Assembly (NCBI GenBank): GCA_018818835.1
Contig: JAHIRD010000141.1
Span: forward strand, 4,608-68,607
Source of the DNA: Pseudomonadota bacterium
GTDB taxonomy: Bacteria; Desulfobacterota; Desulfobacteria; Desulfobacterales; Desulfolunaceae
Direction: 5' to 3'
Length of the DNA: 64,000 nucleotides
In this document: positions 2,327-13,765 of the stretch, one piece after another
Position numbering within the stretch: the stretch's first letter is position 1
Layout: each line of letters starts with the position of its first letter
Notes under the pieces: generated by a model
Seen by the model: only the letters and a program-made list of their open reading frames with translations
What the model was told of the DNA's origin: nothing
Database searches by the model: none
Position numbers and translations under genes: made by a program

Positions 2327-3202
2327 TTAAAAACGGCTTGTTACGTTGATTCCAAGACCTTTTTCATCTCCGGCCCTTATTTCGAGGCCCAGAGAGAATA
2401 ACTCCTTGATATTCATGGTCACCCCCACGAAATATCCAATGTTTTTAGACCATGTGATATCTTCTGTGTAATGAATGAACCCCTCATTAAAATAGAGGGT
2501 GCTGTAATTTCTGTTCGTATAATCCTCCGACCCGGTGATGCTGGCGACTTTTACTCCCATGTATGGAGAATAGGTTGGCATGTTTGCCGATAAACAGAAC
2601 GCCAGTTGAACCTCGTCAAGTGTGGATGCGTAGGATATTCCTTCTGACTTGAATCGGTCTTCTTCTATGGTTAATCGTCGGTAGGTGATATCCATTCCAA
2701 ATGTCACAGGGATATCACCTTTGTATTCTCCCCGGTGCATGACAAAACTTGCACCCATGCCATAATAAAGATCAGGCCCTGACTCGAAGGTATCATGGCT
2801 TGCATAGGACCTGCTGACGGTCCAGTCGCTGTAATCGAAATTAATGGTAGATGTGCTGGTCCCCAGAAGGGCGTAAATGATACTGCTGTCGTTGATGGGA
2901 GCACCGACTTTAAGCCCCATGGTATCCATGGTATTTTTTGATTTTCGTGTCTGGGGGTAATGGCGCTGCTCAGGAGGCGAAATGTTCGGATTGGTCCAGG
3001 GAAAACGCGTGATCTGTTCGGGAAGATCATTGACCTGCCTGTCAAAGGAAACCGTGGTGATGATTGATATTCCACCATCTTTCTGGAACGGACCTGGATT
3101 CCACAATGCCGGATCACCGATATTACCAACAGGAGCGGCACATACGGCAATGGGCAGTAAGATACAGAAGCAGATCAATAGCATGTAGGGTGTACGGTTC
3201 AT
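2327..3202 (-). CDS. Outer-membrane beta-barrel protein, possibly MOMP-like
   Basis: ATG at 3202 with a GGAGAAAAGGA RBS. Signal peptide LLICFCILLPIAVCA. Alternating-polarity strands and a C-terminal ...NVTSRF with terminal Phe, the typical BAM signal. The mature N-terminus PVGNIGDPALW weakly recalls the LPVGNPAEPSL start of chlamydial/Legionella major outer-membrane proteins (from memory). Confidence 0.6.
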   Translation of the reverse strand: MNRTPYMLLICFCILLPIAVCAAPVGNIGDPALWNPGPFQKDGGISIITTVSFDRQVNDLPEQITRFPWTNPNISPPEQRHYPQTRKSKNTMDTMGLKVGAPINDSSIIYALLGTSTSTINFDYSDWTVSRSYASHDTFESGPDLYYGMGASFVMHRGEYKGDIPVTFGMDITYRRLTIEEDRFKSEGISYASTLDEVQLAFCLSANMPTYSPYMGVKVASITGSEDYTNRNYSTLYFNEGFIHYTEDITWSKNIGYFVGVTMNIKELFSLGLEIRAGDEKGLGINVTSRF

Positions 3203-3279: not shown

Positions 3280-3317
3280 TGAAAAAATATCATGGGGGCG
3301 GGTTTTACTCCGCCCCA
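3280..3317 (-). terminator. Rho-independent terminator after the 166-aa secreted-protein gene
   Basis: Minus sense reads GGGGCGGAGTAAAACCCGCCCCC followed by ATGATATTTTTTCATC. It lies about 100 nt downstream of the stop at 3414. Confidence 0.5.
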
Positions 3318-3413: not shown

Positions 3414-3914
3414 TTAGTTGGTCGTTATTCGCACGTTTCCGCTGATCTGGGCATGATAGTCACGGATGCTGATACTCCCGAAACTGTTTCCTTCTCCTGG
3501 TTCCGTTCCCACGGTGATGGATCCGATGTCAAAATGATCGACGTCAATGGTGGCGCCGTTTAAGCTGACATTGATTCCTGTCATCATGGTATGGGAAAAA
3601 AGATCTTGCTCGGTTGTAACAGAAATGGATACGGGTTCTTGAAGGTTGATAACGCCCTGGAATGAAACGTCATTGACGCTTAAATACCCAGCAGTGCCAT
3701 CGGTCCCGTCCGAATCTCCGTAAACCATGCTTCCGATTTCCATGTTAAGGGCAATTTGATCTGCTGCTGTAATTGCAATTCCCGCCTGTGCTGTTGCTTC
3801 GCGCATTCCCGTCTCAGTAAGTGCAGACAAGACCGCATACCCTTTTGAAGGAGTGATGGCCATACCCATAGAAACACATAATACAATTGTCATTAGGAAA
3901 CTAAGCTTTTTCAT
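3414..3914 (-). CDS. Small secreted protein (166 aa) with an N-terminal TAQAG box; paralog family member a
   Basis: The best start is ATG at 3914 (MKKLSFLMTIVLCVSMGMA) with a GGAGA RBS; the longer track ORF to 4040 runs into the riboswitch array. After the signal peptide comes LTETGMREATAQAGIAI, a box shared with ORFs 10042..10746, 10793..11599 and 11812..12642. Confidence 0.7.
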   Translation of the reverse strand: MKKLSFLMTIVLCVSMGMAITPSKGYAVLSALTETGMREATAQAGIAITAADQIALNMEIGSMVYGDSDGTDGTAGYLSVNDVSFQGVINLQEPVSISVTTEQDLFSHTMMTGINVSLNGATIDVDHFDIGSITVGTEPGEGNSFGSISIRDYHAQISGNVRITTN

Positions 3915-3944
3915 TGAGATCTCCTTATCTGTCAACGTCCTACA

Positions 3945-4006
3945 GGCAACCCGGCTGTCCATGGAGGACCCGTGGCTTTCCGTCCCAGGATTGCTCCTGG
4001 TTTGGC
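3945..4006 (-). promoter_or_regulatory. c-di-GMP-I (GEMM-I)-like riboswitch aptamer, unit 1 (closest to the gene)
   Basis: Minus sense: GCCAAACCAGGAGCAAUCCUGGGACGGAAAGCCACGGGUCCUCCAUGGACAGCCGGGUUGCC. The blocks are CAAACC, a 6-bp stem with a GCAA (GNRA) loop, GGGACGGAAAGCC, a second hairpin, and GGGUUGCC. This order matches the GEMM-I aptamer architecture as I recall it. Confidence 0.8.
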
Positions 4007-4010
4007 ATAG

Positions 4011-4092
4011 GAGGCGGCTCGGCTGTCCATGAAATTGCAATGCAAAAAAATGGACCCGTGGCTTTCCGTCCCAGGGTTACCCCTGGTTTGGC
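4011..4092 (-). promoter_or_regulatory. GEMM-I-like aptamer, unit 2
   Basis: Minus sense: GCCAAACCAGGGGUAACCCUGGGACGGAAAGCCACGGGUCCAU[19-nt loop]AUGGACAGCCGAGCCGCCUC. GUAA tetraloop. The 3' end is the variant CCGAGCCGCC. Confidence 0.65.
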
Positions 4093-4119
4093 CTTGTACG
4101 TCTTCTGTTAACTGTTACA

Positions 4120-4197
4120 GGTAACCCGGCTATCCATTTTATCATAAAGAAAAAATGGACCCGTGGCTTTCCGTCCCAGGGTTACCCCTGGTTTGGC
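4120..4197 (-). promoter_or_regulatory. GEMM-I-like aptamer, unit 3
   Basis: Minus sense: GCCAAACCAGGGGUAACCCUGGGACGGAAAGCCACGGGUCCAU[AU-rich loop]AUGGACAGCCGGGUUACC, except that plus-strand tatcc at 4131-4135 gives GGAUAGCC in place of GGACAGCC. Nearly identical to unit 5. Confidence 0.8.
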
Positions 4198-4200
4198 TCT

Positions 4201-4270
4201 GGAGGCGGCCCGGCTGTCCACACAATTATGGACCCGTGGCTTTCTGTCCCAGGGTTACCCCTGGTTTAGC
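4201..4270 (-). promoter_or_regulatory. GEMM-I-like aptamer, unit 4
   Basis: Minus sense: GCUAAACCAGGGGUAACCCUGGGACAGAAAGCCACGGGUCCAUAAUUGUGUGGACAGCCGGGCCGCCUCC. Two point variants are present (CUAAACC, GACAGAAAGCC). It resembles unit 2. Confidence 0.65.
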
Positions 4271-4277
4271 AATAAAT

Positions 4278-4355
4278 GGTAACCCGGCTGTCCATTTTAT
4301 CATAAAGAAAAAATGGACCCGTGGCTTTCCGTCCCAGGGTTACCCCTGGTTTGGC
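4278..4355 (-). promoter_or_regulatory. GEMM-I-like aptamer, unit 5 (5'-most in the RNA)
   Basis: Same blocks as unit 3; 3' end GGACAGCCGGGUUACC. Confidence 0.8.
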
Positions 4356-4515
4356 GCGCTTGTCACCCTTTTACCTCCACGCCCACCCTTTTTTTACGAA
4401 AAGGGCAGGCATGGTCTGTCCCGACTTGTCAAAGAACATGAGCTCACCCCAACCATGCAGATAACCTAAGACGGATATCGACATGATACAGGGAAAACTT
4501 AACGATAATAATTGA

Positions 4516-6021
4516 TCAGTTCGATAAAGTGACAGTGATCCTGAAAAATTCCGGATCAGGATTATCCAGCACACTGATCAGATGAAGTTTATTTGAACCA
4601 TCAAAAACAAGGGGTATCCCATCAATAATGCTTTTAATCTTTAAATTAATTTCGTGGTCGTTAATTACCAGAATCACATTTTTCCCCTTTTCGGCCAGAT
4701 ACGCTATATTCATCCCATCCGGGCTGAACAGGGGATTGAAAATCCGTGAATAGCCACGTCCTTCAATCCCGTCAGTAACCAGAAAGATATTTTTTTTATC
4801 GAGAACTTCATAAAACATATGGTTTGAGTCATTACTGAAACATGGGCTTTTTACATCCATATATTTTTTACCGGGTTTACCGTCTAAAATCACCATGTTA
4901 TTTTTTTCAGTTTTGACTGTATAGGCAACGTGTTTTGAATCCGGGCTGAACACCGGAGTACCCACAAATGGATAAAATCCTTGTTCCTGCCCGTCACAAA
5001 TCACGGTAAACTTATTCTTTTTAATTCCGATATGGGCAAAACGATTGGAATCAGGACTGAAAATATATGTACCGAGAAGATCATATGCGGAACCTTCTTT
5101 CCTATCCATAACAAGTACCCATTTGTTTCCTTTTTTTGCAGGGTAGGCCATATGTTTTGAGTCGGGGCTGAATACGGGAAGGCCCACAGTAGGATATTTT
5201 TCATGTTCCTTACCATCTTCGACGATGAAGATTTTAAACTTTTTTTGGGCTGCATAGGTAAGTCTGGTGGAATCAGGGCTCCATGTAATGGTCAGAACAT
5301 TCTCATAGGGTTTCCCCGTGAATCCGTCTTTGAATAGGAACCATGCCCCGTCTTTGAGTACAGCGCCGGCCAGATGGTTTGAATCCGGACTGAAAATAAG
5401 CTCTTTGATTCCCAAAAATGTGCCGATCTTCCGGGAATTTTTGATAACAAACCATTCCTTACCTTTTACGGCGATATAAGCCAGGTGTTTTGAATCCGGG
5501 CTGAACAAGGGCCGGCTTTTAATTTGATCAAACGGTTCGCCTGCCCTGTGATTTAACACGACAAAGAGTTCATTTCCCATCTTGGCCTTATACGCAAACT
5601 GTTTGCCGTCCGGGCTGAAAATCAGGTCGGATACCCCATCGAAATCCGGTCCTTTTTTCCCATCGATCACCACACATTGCTTGGAACCTTGAACCGCGAT
5701 ATAAGCAAGCCGGTTTGTTTTCGGGCTGAAAAAAGGGGTCCCCTTGGCGATACCATCAAAATCCGGGCCTTTCTTCGTGTCCAGATGAACAGCCATTTTC
5801 TGGTTAACTCGCGTTGCATATGCCACATGCTCTGCATCAGGCTTGTTCGTAGTCAGTCCGAACAGTTTGGACTCTTTGGGGAGTTTTCCTAAAGAGGTTT
5901 TGGTGATTGATACAGTCGGTTTGTCGCTTTTTTGACCTGCAAAGACAGCCAGGGTATGTGAAAAAAAACCGATCAGGCAAATAGAAAACAATGTCATACT
6001 TATTTTTTGAAACAAAACCAT
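4516..6021 (-). CDS. Periplasmic PD40 (TolB-type WD40-like) beta-propeller repeat protein
   Basis: ATG at 6021 and signal peptide LFSICLIGFFSHTLAVFA. About ten repeats of roughly 45 aa carry FSPD(S/G)(K/N)xxAY (FSPDGKQFAY, FSPDSKHLAY, FSPDSNHLAG, FSPDSKHMAY, FSPDGMNIAY). Confidence 0.8.
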   Translation of the reverse strand: MVLFQKISMTLFSICLIGFFSHTLAVFAGQKSDKPTVSITKTSLGKLPKESKLFGLTTNKPDAEHVAYATRVNQKMAVHLDTKKGPDFDGIAKGTPFFSPKTNRLAYIAVQGSKQCVVIDGKKGPDFDGVSDLIFSPDGKQFAYKAKMGNELFVVLNHRAGEPFDQIKSRPLFSPDSKHLAYIAVKGKEWFVIKNSRKIGTFLGIKELIFSPDSNHLAGAVLKDGAWFLFKDGFTGKPYENVLTITWSPDSTRLTYAAQKKFKIFIVEDGKEHEKYPTVGLPVFSPDSKHMAYPAKKGNKWVLVMDRKEGSAYDLLGTYIFSPDSNRFAHIGIKKNKFTVICDGQEQGFYPFVGTPVFSPDSKHVAYTVKTEKNNMVILDGKPGKKYMDVKSPCFSNDSNHMFYEVLDKKNIFLVTDGIEGRGYSRIFNPLFSPDGMNIAYLAEKGKNVILVINDHEINLKIKSIIDGIPLVFDGSNKLHLISVLDNPDPEFFRITVTLSN

Positions 6022-6081
6022 GTTAAAACCTTTTCTTATTTACAAAATTATATGGTTGCATGATATCTCTGCACGGTCCAA

Positions 6082-7965
6082 TTAGTTGTATTCCGCTGAT
6101 AAACGCTCAAGATATCTGTTGAACTCTTCTTCTTCCGTTTCCTCGGTTGTATTCAATTTTGATTCATCCGATTCCGGATGTTTTTTCTTTTTAAAGGGAT
6201 TTAATTTATGAAACAGCTCTTTGATTTTATGGATGCTGTGCTTCATCATCATCTGTTGGTGGTGAAGCATCTCCATCTGGACTTCCAGGGGCATGGTCAC
6301 GCCGAATGTGACAAGATAGATGCTTAAATCCTGCTCGTAATCAAGGCCGGCAAAGGGATTTCCCATCTGGGTGAAATCCAGGGAGTTCATATTGGTGCTT
6401 TCGTTATTATAAATGGTGAAATGATTGCTCCACAGATATCCCAGGCCCAGGTCAAAATCGATGCCGTTGGGGAGTTTGAGGCCAATGCCCGCTCCCACGA
6501 AATCAGCGTCCGGGATAAAATACAGGGCATCGAACTGATCATGCTGCAAAGATGTGGGGCGTTTTTCGTACCCGCAGCGCAAGGTCAGTTTATCGTTGAC
6601 CTCGAATTCCATGGCAGTACTCCAGTGCCAGGTGTCTTTCATGTTTCTGTCCACCACAAAGGTATAGGCCCCATGCTGGTAGCCCAGCATTTTTGCAATA
6701 CGAAGAATCTGGATCCTTTGGTCAAACACAAATCGGTCTTCTTTGCCGGCTGCTGCCCAGTTGGCCCAATGAACATCAAAAAGAAATTTAATCCTGTCCA
6801 AGGGGCGGACCATAATCCCTGTTTGAACCCGTGCAGGAAAAATCTGAGTGGCTGTAACGGTTCCGCTCTGATAGGGCACGGCCTTGATGGGAAGGTCCAG
6901 CATGCCTGCCGATTCCATGGTCATGGGGGTCGAGGCATTCCAGGCCACCTGTTTTTGGAACTGCTTGCTGTATTCCCACATGTATTTTCCGGAAATTTCT
7001 CCTACGGATTCACTTTGATAGCAGAACCCGTAGGAAAACCAAGTCCGAGGGCGCCATAAAAGACCCAGGTTGTATGAGGGAACAAAATCGTCTCTAAGGT
7101 CCATGGTAATGCTGATGTTGTGCTCATAAGGCCCAAGGCCGCCTCCCAACCAAGGGGGCGGGAGGGTTTGCTCTGACACCACGGGAATTTCAAGATCCTT
7201 GGTAGCATCCCCGATAACACGGGTCATGGCCACGAGTTCGTTGGGTGTCCGTACATCCAATTCAAGGCCCATGGCTCGCTGGGCCATACCAATGGAAACA
7301 CCCAGGAAAAGCTGGTCAGATACAGCAAAACTGGCTGAAGGTGCTGCATAGATCAAATGTTGTGCATACAGGGACTTGCATCCGAACTGGAAGGGATCAC
7401 CCTCATCCCGGTGGGCCATTCCGCCAGCAAAGGGGGCATAGTTGGCGTATGCAAAGGTCCACTTGCTGTCCGGCTTTCGTGAGGCCAAGCCCAGGTTCGG
7501 ACCTGCTAAAAAATCAATGGGGCCGTAGAAGGGCAGGTACATACGTCCTGATGAGTTTGTACCCGATTTCCCGTTCAATGGGTCAGGCCCGCCGTGGTCG
7601 CTGTTGGGATCGGTTGCGGAATCGTAATATTCAGGATATTTATTCTCATCCGGCCCCCAGTAACCGTTCATGAACCCTTCAAAATCATCAGCGGTCTTAA
7701 ACCGTCCTGTTCGTTTGATGATGGGCAGGGCAAATCCGTTGCTGAAGGTCTTGCCTTCATCTAATAAAGACAATCCCGCAGGATTGTAATGAACGGACAT
7801 CAGGCCGGGCGGGTCGGCTGTGCAGGTATTGGCCAGGGACACGGCACGGGCATCCACGGCAAGCTGCTCATTAAAAACCGCATGGCTCAAGGAAGGCATC
7901 AGGAATATACAGATAGGTATGGTGAACAACCCGCTGTATTTTATTATGAGACAGAGAACGCGCAA
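6082..7965 (-). CDS. FadL/TodX-family outer-membrane channel with an unusual charged C-terminal tail
   Basis: After the signal peptide: DARAVSLANTCTADPPGLMSVHYNPAGLSLL, a FadL-type N-terminal motif. I prefer the TTG start at 7965 (AGGAGA, then 6 nt, then TTG, giving M-RVLCLIIKYSGLFTIPICIFLMPSLSHA). The track ORF start at 8046 would overlap the upstream gene by 52 nt. Confidence 0.7.
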   Translation of the reverse strand: MRVLCLIIKYSGLFTIPICIFLMPSLSHAVFNEQLAVDARAVSLANTCTADPPGLMSVHYNPAGLSLLDEGKTFSNGFALPIIKRTGRFKTADDFEGFMNGYWGPDENKYPEYYDSATDPNSDHGGPDPLNGKSGTNSSGRMYLPFYGPIDFLAGPNLGLASRKPDSKWTFAYANYAPFAGGMAHRDEGDPFQFGCKSLYAQHLIYAAPSASFAVSDQLFLGVSIGMAQRAMGLELDVRTPNELVAMTRVIGDATKDLEIPVVSEQTLPPPWLGGGLGPYEHNISITMDLRDDFVPSYNLGLLWRPRTWFSYGFCYQSESVGEISGKYMWEYSKQFQKQVAWNASTPMTMESAGMLDLPIKAVPYQSGTVTATQIFPARVQTGIMVRPLDRIKFLFDVHWANWAAAGKEDRFVFDQRIQILRIAKMLGYQHGAYTFVVDRNMKDTWHWSTAMEFEVNDKLTLRCGYEKRPTSLQHDQFDALYFIPDADFVGAGIGLKLPNGIDFDLGLGYLWSNHFTIYNNESTNMNSLDFTQMGNPFAGLDYEQDLSIYLVTFGVTMPLEVQMEMLHHQQMMMKHSIHKIKELFHKLNPFKKKKHPESDESKLNTTEETEEEEFNRYLERLSAEYN

Positions 7966-7993
7966 AAAAAATCTCCTGTTCCTGAACCTGCCA

Positions 7994-9100
7994 TTACAAT
8001 TCGTAGGCAAAAGGGACTCTAACCTGAAGGGAAAAATCAGAGTCATTATTGGTCAAACCGATTCCCAGCCGGACATTCACAGAACGTTTCGGTGTAATGT
8101 TCCAGCCTGTTCCTATGCTGAAAACCGAGGAAATAGATCCTTCGGAACGTGTTTCCCGTGGCCCTTCCGGTCTGACCCAGTCATAGGATGTTTTGGACTG
8201 GTATGAATACTGATAGCTCAAGGTCAGGGATGCTTTATAGGACAGGGAATAGCCGATACCCATGGAAAAGGAATAAACTTCTCCAGGCTTGACACCGGCG
8301 AGGAATATTCCGGCTTCACCTTGAGTCCCGGTTTTGGAATTCAAATGGGTGGTTTCAATCCCATGCTCCACATTTATACCACCAAAAGCAACCAGGGGGT
8401 CGATGGATTTGCTGACATTGCAGCCCATGCCGATGGAATAGGTTCCGTTGCCCGTCGACATTTCTTTGGTGCTGTCAATTTTATAGGGGCTTCTTCCTGT
8501 TGGGCATGTTAATGACCCCGAGACAATTATTGATGGCAGGTCCTTACCGCTTTTCACGGGTTGGAATTGGAGACCGAACGACGTATCTCCAAAATCTGAA
8601 ACATTCTTTGCTGACGTATTGGTCTGGCTGTTGTATTTGTAAACAAAGGGGATATTGCTGTTTACTGTCAGGTTTTCTTTGACAGGATACTCGATGAGAA
8701 ATGAATTGGTCACCGTGTGGTATGCGTTGTGTTTCACGGCCACAATACTATCTGCATTGGCGGTGACGTTATCATAAGAATCACCGGCATAGCGAATGCT
8801 GTATTCAAAACCCAGTTTCCCAGGCTTCATGAGGGTATAATCACGGCCTGCGGCTGAAAGAATCGCGTCATCTTCAGAACTTTTTTCTTCCTGGGTGGTT
8901 TCAAGACGCCGCCTAATATCATTTTCTTCTTCCATTTTCGTGAGCTTGTCTTCAAGTCGTTTGATCTGCTCCTTGAATTGCTCCATATCGCTTGAAGGCT
9001 GCGCCTGCACGTTCACCACAGGGGGGGCTTCGGCATAAACCGCAGAGGTGAGAGTTATCATGGCTAAAATGATCAGTAGTTTTGTAAAATGTTTTATCAC
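7994..9100 (-). CDS. Outer-membrane beta-barrel with an N-terminal coiled coil (FapF-like architecture)
   Basis: GTG at 9100 follows GGAGG at 8-nt spacing and gives the signal peptide IKHFTKLLIILAMITLTSAVYA. Alternative starts are 9127 and 9139. A heptad-rich segment MEQFKEQIKRLEDKLTKMEEENDIRRRLETTQEEK is followed by about 270 aa of amphipathic strands ending ...QVRVPFAYEL. Confidence 0.6.
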   Translation of the reverse strand: MIKHFTKLLIILAMITLTSAVYAEAPPVVNVQAQPSSDMEQFKEQIKRLEDKLTKMEEENDIRRRLETTQEEKSSEDDAILSAAGRDYTLMKPGKLGFEYSIRYAGDSYDNVTANADSIVAVKHNAYHTVTNSFLIEYPVKENLTVNSNIPFVYKYNSQTNTSAKNVSDFGDTSFGLQFQPVKSGKDLPSIIVSGSLTCPTGRSPYKIDSTKEMSTGNGTYSIGMGCNVSKSIDPLVAFGGINVEHGIETTHLNSKTGTQGEAGIFLAGVKPGEVYSFSMGIGYSLSYKASLTLSYQYSYQSKTSYDWVRPEGPRETRSEGSISSVFSIGTGWNITPKRSVNVRLGIGLTNNDSDFSLQVRVPFAYEL

Positions 9101-9147
9101 CTGGTTTCCCTCCGGACTCGGAACCATCTGGTCAGACAAAAATGGTT

Positions 9148-9912
9148 CTATTGTTTATACCGGTTAGTCTTTGTGTCTGTCGTAGTTCCATTATTATGAA
9201 AATCAGCTTCCCATTCCTGGGGAAGGTCAAATGGTCTGTCTACATCGAACATCAGAGTTTTTTCCATATCCTTATCTATAAACCGGAGATCCTGTTCTTT
9301 GAGGCTTAGGCAGGACAGGGCGTTCCCGTATTTCGGGTAGATTCTGAAAAGGATATTGTTATACCACATGCCCATAAACTGGTCCACCGGGTAACTCCCG
9401 TTTCCCCGCCAGGGATCGGCTACGAACACATGGCCTTTGTGAATGGCTTTCAAGACCACAAAATGACGGTAGCCGAACAGCTCTATGGGAACAATGCATG
9501 GCCAGAGTTCAGGATTTTTCAGGTCGGAAAGCTCCGCGTTGTAGCCACCGGCCTTGTACCCCAGAACATCCACGAACTTCTGCATGTCCCAGAGGGAAAA
9601 AGCTCTGAGTTTTTTAATTTGTTCTTTGTCCCCATACTCTAGAAGACCCTTGATAATTTGTTTTTCAGTAAAATTTTCTCCCAGGTAGTTGTTGAGGATG
9701 GTCCCTAAAGCCGCTGATCCGCAGCTGTAATCGTAATTTTGCTTCATCAGGCAGGCCTGGGAACTTTCGGAGAGAGGGATGACTTCAGGGTAGATGCGCA
9801 AGGCTTCATTAGTCCCCATGGCAATATTCAATTCACCTTTGGGGGATGAATGGAAGGGATGAAATCCTGAGATCAGTCCAGCAAAAATGATAAATGCAAA
9901 AACCACATGCAT
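9148..9912 (-). CDS. Secreted C39-family (bacteriocin-processing type) cysteine peptidase domain protein
   Basis: ATG at 9912 with an N-terminal hydrophobic signal. Q-x5-C motif in KQNYDYSCGSAALGTIL, His in YRHFVVLKAI, and Asp in HVFVADPW. This is the complete C39 Gln/Cys/His/Asp arrangement. Confidence 0.8.
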   Translation of the reverse strand: MHVVFAFIIFAGLISGFHPFHSSPKGELNIAMGTNEALRIYPEVIPLSESSQACLMKQNYDYSCGSAALGTILNNYLGENFTEKQIIKGLLEYGDKEQIKKLRAFSLWDMQKFVDVLGYKAGGYNAELSDLKNPELWPCIVPIELFGYRHFVVLKAIHKGHVFVADPWRGNGSYPVDQFMGMWYNNILFRIYPKYGNALSCLSLKEQDLRFIDKDMEKTLMFDVDRPFDLPQEWEADFHNNGTTTDTKTNRYKQ

Positions 9913-10041
9913 ATTATAACCCTCTATCCATCGCGCAGGAGAAATTTCCTGCCCACTGTTCCCAAAGTATTGAAACAGTACATATCAAAAAATATCGGAA
10001 AAGGCACTGTATTATTGCTGTGATATCCAGGTTCACGGCGG

Positions 10042-10746
10042 TCATGGAGAATCCCACCACGTTCCAATTGAACCCGATTTAATCTCAGTCTCATCATACC
10101 CTGCAACGACCTTGAGGCCGGGCGTTGATCCACTCTGGCCCAGGTCTAATATAAAAAAAAGACCCATGTTACTGGTTGGGCTTCCATCGGAATTGAAATT
10201 AAATGTGGTCTGCCCCAGGTTGGCTTTATCATATACGGTCGGGCTTCCACCACTTAAGGCGATGGCAGGATTGTATGTGCCGGAGTAGCTGAGCATGTTG
10301 GCGCTGATCGTCCCCTGGAGCCGATTGGATCCTATGACGATGCGTTCGAGAACAGGATTTGTGGCAGAGGTGTCATCAAAGTCGGCAATAAAGACCAAAC
10401 CGTCAATGGTCAGGGGGGTATCCGTAGATGTATCCCCCAAAATCACATTGTTCCATTGAATATCATAGTTTGCTGCTGCTCCGCTCCTTAAGCTGTCGAT
10501 GGTCGCGTAGGTTTCCATATGAATATCCAGAAAAAGTCGGGCCGTACTGTTGCTCATGGTGAAATTGGTTAAACCGGCCTGGCCGGTCGATGATTTGAGC
10601 GCGTTTTCGTCCATGGCTTTGAGCTCGGCATGGAGCGACGATGGTAAGAATATAAAACAGAAAATAACAAGCACCATTAACTGGTAAACCAGTTTATCTC
10701 TGAACAAAAGTCCATCGAATCGGTGTATGAAAATTACTCTGTTCAT
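10042..10746 (-). CDS. Secreted protein (234 aa) with an N-terminal TGQAG box; paralog family member b
   Basis: ATG at 10746. Signal LMVLVIFCFIFLPSSLHA, then ELKAMDENALKSSTGQAGLTNF. Ser/Thr/Gly/Asn-rich and beta-rich, with no Cys after the signal peptide. Confidence 0.7.
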   Translation of the reverse strand: MNRVIFIHRFDGLLFRDKLVYQLMVLVIFCFIFLPSSLHAELKAMDENALKSSTGQAGLTNFTMSNSTARLFLDIHMETYATIDSLRSGAAANYDIQWNNVILGDTSTDTPLTIDGLVFIADFDDTSATNPVLERIVIGSNRLQGTISANMLSYSGTYNPAIALSGGSPTVYDKANLGQTTFNFNSDGSPTSNMGLFFILDLGQSGSTPGLKVVAGYDETEIKSGSIGTWWDSP

Positions 10747-10792
10747 TATGCTGTATTCCTGCCTTACCCTATTTATTCGTTATGATAACGGC

Positions 10793-11599
10793 TTAAGGAT
10801 TTCCTAACCCACGGCCGGGGATCTCTATGTAAAGTTTTTGAACATTCATGCCGTCAATTGCAAATAGACCCAAGTCTGTCGTGCCTGAGTCAGGAGCATT
10901 GACCTGTATATTATCGATATGGAAGGAACCCGACATGGGCATGTTCAAGCTGATATGTGCATTAGATTCAGCTGAAATATCGATGGTTGCAGGCTTGTTA
11001 TTCGTAAGATCACCCACTTGAATATCAAAGGTGATACCGGAAAAGTTCAACGCGTCTGTCGTGTTGTACTTATAAGAGAGAGTGTCTATTGTGATTTTGT
11101 GGCCTAGTTCGTAGTCGATACCCATACTGCCGACATGGGGCCCAATGAACAGGTGAAAAGATGACAGGACCATGGATTCAGCGGTTAGAGAACCGATATT
11201 TGTTCCGGAAAAATCGATGGCGTCAATGGTCATATCCGTGGATATTGAAATATCAGGACTTTGGCTAAAAAACATGATTTGATCATTGTAAGTGCCCACA
11301 TCAATGCTCAAATGGTTGATTTTGCCGTCATCGTCCATGTCAGATGAACCTGTGTTTGTGTGGGTAAGAATATGGATGTCGTTGAAGCTTATATATTCAG
11401 TTTCATCATCGGGATTGTAAAAGGTCATGTTGTCACTGTGGACTTCTGTGATCATGTCACCAATGGCGATATCAATACCGGCCTGGGCCATGGTTTTTTT
11501 CATCTGTTGGTTGGACAGTGCTTCAAGGCAGCATCCGGTGTCCGGGATGATGCTTATGATGCTCAACACGATGAATAAGTATGTTAAGGCCTGGGTCAC
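10793..11599 (-). CDS. Secreted protein (268 aa) with an N-terminal MAQAG box; paralog family member c
   Basis: GTG at 11599 after AAGGA. Hydrophobic N-terminus LTYLFIVLSIISII, then LEALSNQQMKKTMAQAGIDIAIGD. Asp/Ser/Thr/Ile-rich. Confidence 0.65.
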   Translation of the reverse strand: MTQALTYLFIVLSIISIIPDTGCCLEALSNQQMKKTMAQAGIDIAIGDMITEVHSDNMTFYNPDDETEYISFNDIHILTHTNTGSSDMDDDGKINHLSIDVGTYNDQIMFFSQSPDISISTDMTIDAIDFSGTNIGSLTAESMVLSSFHLFIGPHVGSMGIDYELGHKITIDTLSYKYNTTDALNFSGITFDIQVGDLTNNKPATIDISAESNAHISLNMPMSGSFHIDNIQVNAPDSGTTDLGLFAIDGMNVQKLYIEIPGRGLGNP

Positions 11600-11641
11600 A
11601 GAGTTGTCCTTTAAAACATAATGTTTTGTATGTCACTCCAA

Positions 11642-11708
11642 GGCAACCCGACCATCCGGTGGGCACCGGACTCGAAGCTTTCCGTCCCCGGATTGCTCCG
11701 GGTTTGGC
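11642..11708 (-). promoter_or_regulatory. GEMM-I-like riboswitch aptamer in the leader of the 10793..11599 operon
   Basis: Minus sense: GCCAAACCCGGAGCAAUCCGGGGACGGAAAGCUUCGAGUCCGGUGCCCACCGGAUGGUCGGGUUGCC. Stem 1 is CCCGGA/UCCGGG with a GCAA loop (compensatory changes relative to the other copies). It ends 42 nt upstream of the start codon. Confidence 0.8.
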
Positions 11709-11732
11709 GTTTCTTGAAACATTTGATCCTAT

Positions 11733-11776
11733 GAAAAAGCCCCTTCCGGGAAACATCTATGTTCAGGGAAGGGGCT
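11733..11776 (-). terminator. Rho-independent terminator after the 276-aa gene
   Basis: Minus sense: AGCCCCTTCC-loop-GGAAGGGGCT (10-bp stem) followed by TTTTTCAT. It starts about 35 nt downstream of the stop at 11812. Confidence 0.65.
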
Positions 11777-11811: not shown

Positions 11812-12642
11812 TTAGTGAGCAGCGATTTCAACAATTCCACCAAGGATAGCCATTGCGCTCTGGCCTTTGGAAATTTTGATGAAGTTTGCATTATTGTTGA
11901 TACCGGTTCCTGCAACACCAACTGAATATTCATCAGCTGTGGTGGAGATAAGAAGGGTCGGAAGACCAATCACAACACCAGTGACAGCCTGAGTGGTACC
12001 AATCGCAGTTGCTGTAGGATCAGCTGCAAGAGTAGCAACACCGGAACCTAAAAGAACGCCGGCTTCAGAGATGTCACGAACATCAGTATCTGCAGAAATA
12101 GTAGCAAGTGCAGTTGCTTTTGCAGTACCGAGAGCAATAAGGTTGGCCATAGAAGGATCGCCAGCATAGGTAGCAGCTGCTGTGGCAACAAGACCTGATT
12201 GAGTCAATACGGTAGTCAGGAGTGCACCGGCATCAGCATTAATGATGGCATTATTGGCATTAACTCCAGCTGCAAGGATTGAACAAGCTCCTACGTCAAT
12301 GTTAAGAGCAGCAGCTTCAACCCAAGTACCCTTGTTGACAACACCAGCTGCAGCAAGGAAGTCAGCTTCGTAATCAGTCTGTGAAGTCATGGCTAGGTAT
12401 TCTTTCACAACGTGTTTGTCACTGATAACGATTGAGCCTTCAACACCGTTTGTTCCGTCTTCATCCGTATAAGTGGTTGAACCTGTGAATTGTTCGATCA
12501 CAACGTTATCCAAAGTGATGCTCACACCAGCCTGACCAGTGGCGGATTTCATGTTGGCGTCAGTCATTGAAGTCAAAGCAAAGACTGAAGGAGCGATTGC
12601 GAGAGATGCACCAAGAACTAAACTCATAGCTAATTTTTTCAT
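11812..12642 (-). CDS. Secreted Ala/Gly/Thr/Val-rich protein (276 aa) with an N-terminal TGQAG box; paralog family member d
   Basis: ATG at 12642 with a GGAGAAGAAA RBS (the track start 12654 is a TTG). Signal MKKLAMSLVLGASLAIAPSVFA, then LTSMTDANMKSATGQAGVSITLDN. The rest is low-complexity A/G/T/V sequence. It has its own terminator and its own riboswitch-like leader. Confidence 0.75.
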   Translation of the reverse strand: MKKLAMSLVLGASLAIAPSVFALTSMTDANMKSATGQAGVSITLDNVVIEQFTGSTTYTDEDGTNGVEGSIVISDKHVVKEYLAMTSQTDYEADFLAAAGVVNKGTWVEAAALNIDVGACSILAAGVNANNAIINADAGALLTTVLTQSGLVATAAATYAGDPSMANLIALGTAKATALATISADTDVRDISEAGVLLGSGVATLAADPTATAIGTTQAVTGVVIGLPTLLISTTADEYSVGVAGTGINNNANFIKISKGQSAMAILGGIVEIAAH

Positions 12643-12686
12643 TTTCTTCTCCAAAGTAAAATTAAAAATTAATTTAATTTACCAGA

Positions 12687-12762
12687 GGCAACCCGACCAT
12701 CCCCATCGCAAGCATGATGCGGACTCGTTGGCTTTCCGTCCCTGGATTACTCCAGGTTTGGT
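12687..12762 (-). promoter_or_regulatory. GEMM-I-like riboswitch aptamer, variant with A at the selectivity position
   Basis: Minus sense: AUACCAAACCUGGAGUAAUCCAGGGACGGAAAGCCAACGAGUCC...GGAUGGUCGGGUUGCC. Stem 1 is CCUGGA/UCCAGG with a GUAA loop. The base two nt 5' of CAAACC is A here; it is G in the other six copies. Confidence 0.75.
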
Positions 12763-13765
12763 ATTTTCTTTGGCGGTTTTGCTTGCGCACCCTTGCGCAA
12801 GACAAATTGATTTGTAAAAACGATTTACCATTAAACAGATTCGTTTAACGTTCTTAAGAATTAGCCTCCTTTCCATATAAAAAGAAATGTCCCCACATTC
12901 CAGTTAATATTCATATCCCTAATGAGTCTTTTTAAAGATCTTAAGGGACACGCGACGACCTAACTAAAGCCGCCGGAAACAACATGTATGTAAATTTTAG
13001 AAAGAGCTGATTTATGCCTACCTCGTAAACCGGTTGGCTGTGCGGCCCATGTGTTCTCGTGTGTGGGCCTTGTCTTCGCATTCAATCATCGGATGAACCA
13101 TTCAAAAATTGAAAGACCGTAACAATGTTTTATAAAACGTACGAAGATAATCCTTATGTACGAAAGTAGTAGGGTCGAATGATGATTGTATATCCGCTGC
13201 CCTTTTGCTTTGTCAATTAAAAATTTTCGATTTTCTTAAAAATTAAATTGTACGAGTATAAAAAAAAGTACTTGAAACGATTGACAATAGTCATTGTGAA
13301 CGCTGTTCATCAGTTGTGCCAAATGTACTAAATAGGTCCATTCGGTTGTACAGCTGTTAAAATATCGAAATTTCAGGCATTTGAATTATAGCCCCGAAAA
13401 ATGATTTCGCGAAATCCTGCGAAAATATGGGCTTTTACCGAACAATGTTCATGTACTGGAATGGGATTTTGAGGAAAAAATATGATTTCTATTGAGTTTT
13501 TAAGGAACTTGCGCGTTTGGTAAGGTACCTTTTTGATAAATCGGGGGTCACCATGGGCGTTTGTCAGGTGAAAGTAATTCAATTATCCGATTTTAAAGGT
13601 ATTTTAACTGAATATATGTAAAAAAGTTCTTAGCTTTATTAAGTATTTTACCCAAGGAGAGAAACATAGTTTCAATAAATGGACATAGATCTTAATGACG
13701 ATCATGATACTCAGACCCTATGTTTTTAAGGGCTCGCAGGCGTTTAATTGAAGGATGGCATGGGA

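Follow-up and report, generated by a model that had tools for sequence, protein, structure and literature searches.

A candidate translational c-di-GMP switch on a DUF6160 gene at the head of a Fap/Fil-like fibre-export operon

Riboswitches of the c-di-GMP-I class (GEMM-I, Rfam RF01051), of which the Vc2 RNA of Vibrio cholerae is an example, are built on a common set of helices, a GNRA tetraloop and three positions, G20, A47 and C92, that act as ligand contacts, and an A at position 20 is the signature of the cGAMP-type GEMM-Ib RNAs (PMC6140456). They are found in the 5′ leaders of surface-structure genes, and several may be gathered at one locus where they control surface or adhesion genes, G20 and A20 forms together: the triple tandem Bc3-5 of Bacillus thuringiensis and a cluster of Desulfobacca acetoxidans that combines c-di-GMP-I and c-AMP-GMP aptamers are cases in point (PMC4759541, PMC9481103). 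Two export systems matter here on the protein side, the Fap functional-amyloid system of Pseudomonas, with its C39 peptidase FapD and its outer-membrane channel FapF (PDB 5o67), and the ‘Fil’ putative pilus of Acinetobacter (NCBIfam NF050077-NF050080), for which riboswitch control is not reported in the literature that we searched. The locus described in the present work brings both sides together. It lies in a window of 64,000 nucleotides from a sulphate-reducer-like bacterium, where a six-gene surface-fibre export operon stands behind a c-di-GMP-I aptamer, and all the features discussed below are on the minus strand.

The stretch 11639-11718 is a canonical c-di-GMP-I aptamer. It covers the full RF01051 model (positions 1-87) with 61.7 bits (gathering score 35; E 1.2e-9 over the whole window), and it confirms, within slightly wider limits, the cyclic-dinucleotide aptamer that the first-pass annotation had placed at 11642-11708. 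Helix P1 pairs 11713-11718 with 11637-11642, the GNRA tetraloop has the sequence GCAA, and the ligand positions, read from the cmscan alignment and mapped by setting the three Rfam consensus lines (canonical, GGC and UAU) side by side, are G20 at 11708, A47 at 11681 and C92 at 11643. All three are found in 11/11 orthologues of this leader, which score 52-66 bits, hence above the Rfam gathering score. Assignment to the GEMM-Ib (3′,3′-cGAMP) riboswitches, which need A20, was rejected, the orthologues having G there in 11 cases out of 11. When 44 local aptamers were aligned by fitting to the covariance model, 96.5% of the cells were paired and 15 of the 22 pairs had changed on both sides, a result that none of 500 shuffles equalled.

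We are dealing with a known riboswitch class in an undescribed context. In contrast to the usual c-di-GMP-I situation, this aptamer comes immediately after the terminator of the paralogous gene before it, its expression platform is very short (42 nt) with predicted Shine-Dalgarno sequestration instead of a terminator, and it is the second of three riboswitch leaders which bring together seven aptamers in a cluster of 9 kb. Leader 1 (12684-12772; RF01051, 53 bits) precedes a 280-aa FilA-like gene and carries a c-di-GMP-I-class aptamer with A at position 20, a base that 11 relatives share. Leader 3 (3942-4365), which precedes a 167-aa DUF6160 gene, contains five tandem c-di-GMP-I aptamers, four of which are recognized by Rfam and all five by direct reading and by a covariance model trained on them (R1). 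These two separate leaders had been announced at 12687-12762 and 3945-4355. While tandem or clustered riboswitches are known elsewhere, here the aptamers differ in that they head successive paralogous cargo genes of a single export cluster.

The 280-aa DUF6160/FilA-like protein, a candidate major subunit, is encoded at 11812-12654, with a likely start at the ATG at 12642 as judged from start context (Pfam PF19657, E 3.6e-9; NCBIfam pilus_FilA, E 5e-6, under cutoff). Beyond leader 2, the run opens with a 268-aa DUF6160 paralog, A268 (10793-11599; PF19657; GUG start at 11597-11599), and a 234-aa paralog, A234 (10042-10746; PF19657, E 4e-7). It continues with a FilB/FapD-like C39 cysteine peptidase that has a hydrophobic N-terminal segment (9148-9912; PF03412, E 4.8e-15; pilus_FilB, 4e-54, and C39_FapD, 7e-33, both under cutoff), a FilC/FapF-like outer-membrane protein made of a coiled coil and a beta-barrel (7994-9139; pilus_FilC, 3e-56, and FapF, 1e-21, both under their cutoffs) and a FilD-like barrel of the FadL/OmpP1 family (6082-8046; Pfam Toluene_X, 2e-30; pilus_FilD, 5e-83, under cutoff). 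It ends with a PD40-repeat (beta-propeller) protein (4516-6021; Pfam PD40, 4e-17), whose gene keeps the same position in relatives. The 167-aa paralog is at 3414-3917 (PF19657, 5.5e-9). As the first-pass annotation had proposed for its secreted paralog family, each of the four DUF6160 paralogs of the window is behind a GEMM-I element, directly or through operon position. In the A268 family (27 homologues) a conserved motif, ...EIPGRGLG(K/N)-P, includes an invariant C-terminal PGRGLG; the AF2 model of the protein (pLDDT 86) is all-beta, and its comparison with the PDB gave no fold match.

With Fap, the locus shares a periplasm-directed C39 peptidase having an intact Gln/Cys/His/Asp set (Q58, C64, H150 and D166 are invariant) and a coiled-coil and barrel protein homologous to FapF (5o67, E 2.4e-15). 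It differs by its cargo candidates, which are DUF6160 proteins, and by its additional FadL-like barrel and PD40 protein; FapA, FapE and the repeat amyloid subunits FapB and FapC are absent from the locus, without any FapB/FapC-type NCBIfam match. With scores of 113.7 against 330 for FapD and 77 against 700 for FapF, and in the absence of FapB/FapC, we have to do with homologous machinery and not with a Fap functional-amyloid system. As for Fil, the FilA, FilB, FilC and FilD models each match their counterpart here, and the order is unchanged, with scores (26/220, 184/475, 191/630 and 279/970 against cutoffs) that fall short of the equivalog level, and judging from these profile matches the locus is a distant relative of Acinetobacter Fil. 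It has several DUF6160 paralogs where Fil has one, and PD40 and outer-membrane protein genes in place of FilE and FilF.

The six genes have the appearance of a single unit, with a common strand, short gaps (46, 129 and 8 nt, an overlap, then 60 nt), a conserved order and no internal intrinsic terminator; if FilC starts at the ATG at 9127, the gap that separates it from the C39 gene becomes about 20 nt instead of 8. The order A268-(A234)-C39-FilC-FilD-PD40 recurs in loci of Desulfobacterales, Syntrophales and Geobacterales, in dozens of genomes, and the five downstream genes are probably co-transcribed with the 268-aa gene. Scanning the minus strand from 13000 to 2200 for hairpins followed by a U tract brought out just two strong intrinsic terminators. 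The first, a terminator or attenuator at 11734-11776 (dG -21.7 kcal/mol), consists of a 10-bp GC-rich stem, AGCCCCUUCC...GGAAGGGGCU, followed by UUUUU; it stands 36 nt past the TAA stop codon (11812-11814) of the 280-aa gene and some 15 nt ahead of the aptamer, which does adjoin the terminator of the upstream gene, as had been noticed. The second, a GGGGCGG...CCGCCCC hairpin at 3285-3316 (dG -18.3), comes after the 167-aa gene. Inside the run the scan found weak hairpins with poor U tracts and no strong terminator, nor did it find a convincing one directly past 4516. The earlier view that transcription would meet no terminator before 4516 is right for the run itself, the next strong intrinsic terminator on this strand being the one at 3285-3316.

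How far the influence of the aptamer extends along this unit is best approached through its immediate platform. The 42 nt lying between the aptamer GCC and the start codon contain no platform of the terminator type and no GC-rich hairpin followed by a U tract. The 3′ strand of the aptamer, GGUCGGGUUGCCUU (11640-11653), is complementary to AAGG-a-CAACUC...GACC (11594-11611), a segment that includes the Shine-Dalgarno sequence (11607-11611) and overlaps with the GUG start, the predicted platform as a whole occupying 11594-11653. In the free minimum-energy fold (-53.5 kcal/mol), a 14-bp helix associates the aptamer 3′ strand with the Shine-Dalgarno and start region; with the aptamer enforced (-41.0 kcal/mol) the Shine-Dalgarno is freed, and the unpaired probabilities of AAGG go from 0.15/0.10/0.09/0.06 to 0.93/0.83/0.40/0.50. 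These figures come from thermodynamic folding alone, which ignores co-transcriptional folding, and the predicted switch requires that ligand binding and tertiary contacts supply about 12 kcal/mol. The aptamer/Shine-Dalgarno duplex reaches only z = -2.2 against shuffles. By two measures 7/9 orthologous leaders behave in the same way; in the two others (L162 and L164 in our numbering of related loci) Shine-Dalgarno accessibility is lower with the aptamer locked, and in L161 it barely shifts. The pairing partners vary from locus to locus with complementarity being kept, GGGUUGCCUU:AAGGaCAACUC in the window and GGGCcGCCU:AGGCGCCC in L001. The folding suggests that leader 2 is a translational ON switch for the first cistron.

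Comparison with relatives (174 related loci with 105 aptamers, and 58 related clusters) points to the same gene. The gene next to the aptamer encodes a DUF6160 protein in 99 of the 105 cases, the contig ending there in the six others, and none of the 105 is placed directly before C39, FilC, FilD or PD40. The operon leader is present in 11/58 clusters and missing from 47 that have the same gene order, and, because model R1 was trained on local sequences including the five-aptamer array, absences in distant loci hold at the sensitivity of R1. In six loci (L009, L010, L012, L042, L043 and L068) aptamers occur only downstream of the machinery. Four close relatives without the leader (L003, L170, L173 and L174) have kept both the hairpin and the operon. 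Relatives share the hairpin sequence whether or not the next aptamer follows it, the U tracts being weaker where it does not. In L173 the first operon gene begins about 16 nt past this same hairpin, with a similar layout in L170, L174 and L003. Since the gene follows the hairpin almost immediately, read-through or a promoter overlapping the hairpin probably feeds the operon there, and the aptamer may be an intercistronic element and not the head of a transcription unit.

The account that we favour, with somewhat more confidence than doubt, is that leader 2 combines its aptamer with a translational ON switch acting on a DUF6160 cargo gene, the genes downstream being affected indirectly at most. 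On its 5′ side the aptamer has the hairpin (terminator or attenuator) of the FilA-like gene, on its 3′ side the next DUF6160 gene. Without ligand, its 3′ strand would pair with the Shine-Dalgarno and GUG of the 268-aa gene and block translation; c-di-GMP would fix this strand in P2 and P1, leave the ribosome-binding site free and so switch on the first cistron. On this view it is the DUF6160 gene, coding for fibre or cargo, that is conserved as the target, rather than the export machinery. The downstream genes may owe their transcription to read-through at the upstream hairpin or else to a promoter that overlaps this hairpin, and any effect of the switch on A234, C39, FilC, FilD and PD40 would be indirect, exerted via Rho polarity or mRNA stability while the first cistron goes untranslated. 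Polarity or mRNA decay making the whole operon ligand-dependent is a possible outcome. A Shine-Dalgarno sequence is evident before A234, C39 and PD40 individually; none is seen ahead of FilC, whose start may depend on translational coupling, and it is uncertain where FilD begins, so that the downstream cistrons are not fully independent. The proposal of the first-pass annotation that the leader gates the whole operon thus survives in its premises, a real aptamer and genes that look like one unit. It is weakened by the lack of a terminator platform, by these separate ribosome-binding sites, by the absence of aptamers before machinery genes and by the many clusters that do without the leader.

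Two other ways of wiring the operon deserve discussion. Tentatively, everything from the 280-aa gene to PD40, perhaps to the 167-aa gene, might be a single transcript begun upstream of 12772, the hairpin fixing the subunit-to-machinery ratio as a leaky attenuator, and the aptamer adjusting translation of the 268-aa gene only, leaving the machinery unaffected. The layout of L173 and its three fellows, which leaves no space for a separate promoter, argues for this arrangement, as do the conservation of the hairpin in all relatives, with weaker U tracts in those that lack the aptamer, and the lack of a strong terminator between 11734 and 3316. However, the hairpin of the window is strong and canonical (U5), hence read-through may be low, -10-like motifs are found past the U tract, and operon-internal riboswitches are uncommon. 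These motifs (TAGGAT in the window, TAAGAT in L161 and L004, TAAAAT in L001) would suit instead an aptamer that heads its own transcription unit from near 11722 and gates all six genes, through Rho polarity and mRNA decay or an unrecognized transcriptional platform, cargo and machinery being jointly c-di-GMP dependent. We find this unlikely, despite the lack of a strong terminator from 11599 to 4516, the conserved gene order, the retention of the leader in 11 related clusters and a concentration of C-rich, G-poor (rut-like) stretches in the first ORF (5/15 such windows, at 11441-10915). Besides the points already raised against operon-wide gating, the U tract is only some 15 nt from the aptamer, so that any promoter would overlap the terminator, and the 129-nt spacer between A234 and C39, which holds a conserved block, could carry an internal promoter. 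A sigma-70 consensus scan, with 7 sites against 19.7 expected, carries no information on this point. That leader 2 acts as an OFF switch, is a relic in decay or senses another dinucleotide such as 3′,3′-cGAMP, as the two discordant orthologous leaders and the A20 of the adjoining leader 1 (PMC6140456) might suggest, is very improbable in view of its invariant G20, A47 and C92, its high-scoring full-model match and its helices maintained by covariation.

If the switch did reach the whole operon, an outer-membrane fibre-export machine and its subunits would be licensed by c-di-GMP at the RNA level, a type of control undescribed in Desulfobacterota. The narrower, translational reading that we prefer also connects cyclic-dinucleotide signalling with a Fap/Fil-type secretion apparatus and with DUF6160, a family whose function is unknown and which has FilA-like members, and provides a hypothesis for these widespread clusters: a biofilm or surface fibre built at high c-di-GMP. 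As a more speculative extension, for which the chances appear slim, the three leaders might form a multi-input, RNA-only circuit for an uncharacterized Fap/Fil-like fibre system. An A20 switch (cGAMP-type or bispecific) would act on the major subunit; a G20 switch inside the message, past a leaky attenuator, would re-license translation of the second subunit and, via polarity, the mRNA including the machinery; a five-aptamer ‘digital’ switch would act on the third. Two dinucleotide signals would in this manner set subunit composition and machinery level. With its mixture of G20 and A20 forms and its array of five aptamers, the locus offers a useful natural test bed for riboswitch logic, and both the array and the A20 variant are more unusual features than leader 2 itself. 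The published survey comprises doublets and triplets only (PMC9481103), against five aptamers in leader 3.

A riboswitch gating an entire export operon, the 268-aa and 234-aa DUF6160 genes together with the machinery that follows them, was what the first-pass annotation had proposed. That proposal is supported in part. The element is real and stands at the head of a plausible operon, or at any rate in front of one, but three things suggest that the first DUF6160 gene is the centre of its control: the translational mechanism predicted for it, the ribosome-binding sites that most downstream genes evidently have to themselves, and the distribution of the aptamers. Any effect on the machinery would be indirect. 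That an aptamer stands before the run of export genes is confirmed: at 11639-11718 on the minus strand, the Rfam scan matched the full RF01051 (c-di-GMP-I, GEMM-I) model at 61.7 bits (E 1.2e-9), above the gathering score of 35, as one of five c-di-GMP-I clan matches in the whole window, all on that strand. The roles of ligand-contact positions 20, 47 and 92 are described in PMC6140456, and we identified the corresponding columns via the Rfam consensus lines, setting the canonical model against the GGC and UAU variant models. Position 20 falls on the unpaired base that stands immediately 5' to the two-pair helix; position 47 is the first A past the 3' side of that helix, and position 92 the first C past the G that comes after P2. 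G11708, A11681 and C11643 thus make up the c-di-GMP combination; UUCAAG (11713-11718) is able to pair with CUUGGA (11637-11642) as P1, and GCAA makes a tetraloop of the GNRA type. A covariance model built from 18 local aptamers found 44 aptamers in the window and 80 genome loci taken together, with pairing in 96.5% of cells and compensatory changes at 15 of 22 pairs, in an alignment that was itself fitted to the model. Identity with the Rfam GGC or UAU variants was rejected, as direct reading of the aptamers concerned gave the canonical G/A/C, so that the variant matches reflect competition within the clan rather than altered binding sites; the window aptamer is an ordinary member of RF01051.

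Downstream lie six minus-strand ORFs (11599-4516). The first two, of 268 and 234 aa, both belong to Pfam DUF6160; they are followed by a 254-aa Peptidase_C39 protein (NCBIfam FilB 4e-54, FapD 7e-33), which retains Gln58, Cys64, His150 and Asp166 in 18 of 18 aligned homologues, a 381-aa protein (FilC 3e-56, FapF 1e-21; PDB FapF 5o67, E 2.4e-15), a 654-aa FadL/Toluene_X protein (FilD 5e-83) and a 501-aa PD40-repeat protein. Because all NCBIfam scores of the cluster genes fall under the curated cutoffs, the cluster is only distantly related to the 'Fil' system of Acinetobacter and the 'Fap' system of Pseudomonas and belongs to neither: its machinery is homologous to FapD/FapF and to FilB-D but fails the membership cutoffs, and, unlike Fap, it has no Fap amyloid subunits. 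In the literature we found no link of DUF6160 or Fil-type clusters to cyclic-dinucleotide riboswitches, and searches on DUF6160, Fil pili and GEMM elements in Desulfobacter-type bacteria likewise turned up nothing on the association. AlphaFold gives the 268-aa protein a confident all-beta model (pLDDT 86) with long antiparallel strands; a fold search of the PDB gave nothing meaningful (E 0.11 at best, every TM-score < 0.3), and a sequence search of the PDB came back empty. The C-terminal PGRGLG of this family (gene at 10793-11599, minus strand) is invariant in 28 homologues, inside a conserved ...EIPGRGLG(K/N)-P motif. The four DUF6160 paralogs of the locus (minus-strand ORFs at 12642, 11599, 10746 and 3917) share only an N-terminal predicted signal peptide and, after it, the motif L-(S/T/K)-x-(L/M)-x3-4-(M/L)-(K/R)-x2-3-(G/A)-Q-A-G-(I/V/L). 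This motif looks like a leader of the double-glycine type, and the periplasmic C39 peptidase encoded alongside may recognise it or cleave there.

The first-pass annotation correctly described the aptamer as lying after an upstream terminator and before a gene run devoid of internal ones. A scan of the minus strand from 13000 to 2200 for hairpins with a U tract behind them gave no more than two strong intrinsic terminators: one at 3285-3316, after the 167-aa DUF6160 gene, and one at 11734-11776, directly upstream of the aptamer, where a AGCCCCUUCC...GGAAGGGGCU hairpin followed by UUUUU (dG -21.7 kcal/mol) lies 36 nt past the stop codon of the 280-aa FilA-like gene. Internal candidates at 9225-9207, 8044-8015, 7787-7770 and 4569-4551 were rejected as uncoupling signals, being intra-ORF with weak stems or poor U tracts; the same scan found no convincing terminator directly after 4516. 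An attenuator after the major subunit gene is the usual layout of fibre operons. All relatives keep the GC-rich hairpin that follows the FilA-like gene, and close relatives that lack the second aptamer retain the same GCCCCTTCC...GGAAGGGGCTTTT hairpin (L173, 6260-6320; L170, 800-920; L174, 1385-1425; L003, 8215-8300). In these loci the U tract is separated from the start of the 268-type gene, the counterpart of the 268-aa gene, by about 16 nt in L173 and by a few tens of nucleotides in the three others, so that the operon there must be fed by read-through or from a promoter overlapping the hairpin. It follows that the window aptamer may be an intercistronic riboswitch carried on a read-through transcript. 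It may, alternatively, head an independent unit, for which the -10-like hexamers (TAGGAT, TAAGAT, TAAAAT) that several orthologues show past the U tract argue weakly; in the window the U tract and P1 lie only about 15 nt apart, any -35/-10 assignment around the terminator is speculation, and a sigma-70 promoter scan, with fewer matches than in shuffled sequence, is uninformative for this organism. Further down, the 129-nt spacer between the 234-aa and C39 genes (9913-10041, minus strand) contains two hairpins and a block, AATAATACnGTGC...TTTTGATA, that is conserved in L161, L162 and L164; in L001, L165 and L167 the spacer is only some 20 nt long. An internal promoter may lie in the 129-nt spacer, or a site of transcript processing.

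The distance from the GCC of the aptamer to the GUG start at 11599 is only 42 nt, and no GC-rich hairpin with a U tract was found in that interval. A terminator-type platform was rejected, the sole hairpin of the leader being an A/U stem of 5-6 bp (ACAUA...UAUGU), too weak for the role and not kept in orthologues. The unconstrained minimum-energy fold (-53.5 kcal/mol) disrupts the aptamer, pairing its 3' strand GGUCGGGUUGCCUU (11640-11653) with AAGG-a-CAACUC...GACC (11594-11611), a segment which covers the Shine-Dalgarno sequence of the 268-aa gene and overlaps its start codon. Once the consensus aptamer is enforced (-41.0 kcal/mol), the unpaired probabilities of AAGG rise from 0.15/0.10/0.09/0.06 to 0.93/0.83/0.40/0.50; for the window this clear exposure is obtained with the enforced-aptamer constraint, while the measure using a trimmed aptamer shows no change. 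The duplex between the aptamer 3' strand and the Shine-Dalgarno region is stronger than in shuffles (z = -2.2), and across orthologous leaders, with two measures, accessibility of the Shine-Dalgarno sequence was higher in seven of nine when the aptamer strand was withheld; the complementary segments themselves vary in sequence from locus to locus. From these folding predictions, the exposure of the Shine-Dalgarno sequence, the duplex and the behaviour of the orthologous leaders, we infer a translational ON switch.

Such a switch, acting on the first cistron alone, would not by itself gate most of the downstream genes, since the 234-aa, C39 and PD40 genes each have an evident Shine-Dalgarno sequence. 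The FilC start shows none upstream, and FilC may be translationally coupled to C39; the start position of FilD is uncertain. Between 12800 and 3300 the minus strand has 15 C-rich, G-poor 78-nt windows, five of which lie within the first operon ORF (10915-11441), where they would be candidate Rho-loading sites were that ORF left untranslated. Such a concentration is compatible with Rho polarity without demonstrating it.

The distribution of the aptamers was followed in 80 loci from one-per-species genomes, fetched with an alignment of C39 homologues, 80 from metagenomes, with few close relatives among them, and 14 retrieved through the exact proteins of the nearest C39 relatives; Desulfatiferula olefinivorans, a cultured bacterium, is the closest named relative (C39 identity 86%), and locus L162 is laid out like the window. 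The gene maps show a widely conserved order: FilA-like, 268-type, 234-type, C39, FilC, FilD, PD40, 167-type gene and an outer-membrane barrel. The model recovered 105 aptamers in distinct loci, 99 of them with a DUF6160-family gene downstream (52 of the 167-type, 30 of the 280-type, 11 of the 268-type and 6 other) and the remaining six next to a contig end; none of the 105 stands directly before C39, FilC, FilD or PD40. Of 58 clusters, 11 have an aptamer directly before the 268-type gene itself (the window, L001, L002, L004, L081, L082, L161, L162, L164, L165 and L167), leaders that Rfam confirmed. The other 47 have no such leader, including the close relatives L003, L170, L173 and L174 (C39 identity 63-76%), and several clusters carry aptamers only downstream of the machinery (L009, L010, L012, L042, L043, L068). 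This distribution indicates that the conserved partner of the riboswitch is the cargo-type DUF6160 gene.

With its three leaders, seven aptamers and a mixture of G and A at position 20, the complete locus holds more interest than the claim made for this one leader. The leader of the 280-aa FilA-like gene (12684-12772, minus strand) has A at position 20, as have its counterparts in L001, L002, L003, L081, L161, L162, L164, L165, L167, L170 and L173; an A in place of G there marks GEMM-Ib RNAs that sense cGAMP or are bispecific. G20 is found elsewhere, in all 11 operon leaders and in 52 of the 53 readable 167-type array aptamers (one more being unreadable), which suggests, from sequence, that the locus may read two different dinucleotides. 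About 10 nt upstream of this first aptamer lies a perfect inverted repeat, TTGCGCA-AGGG-TGCGCAA (12783-12800, minus strand), which may bind a protein or form a hairpin at the 5' end of the leader. The 167-aa DUF6160 gene is preceded, at 3942-4365 on the minus strand, by five complete tandem c-di-GMP-I aptamers (4275-4365, 4201-4280, 4117-4207, 4009-4101 and 3942-4016), the second of which has its two-pair helix altered by a compensatory CU/AG swap; one to four aptamers occupy this position in relatives, and a published survey of tandem riboswitches lists for c-di-GMP-I only 347 doublets and 12 triplets (PMC9481103). After the cluster comes a 291-aa outer-membrane-barrel-like protein (2327-3202, minus strand), followed in L161, L162, L165, L170, L172 and L174 by an LVIVD-repeat protein of about 770 aa, an arrangement suggesting that the functional unit may reach past the terminator at 3285-3316.
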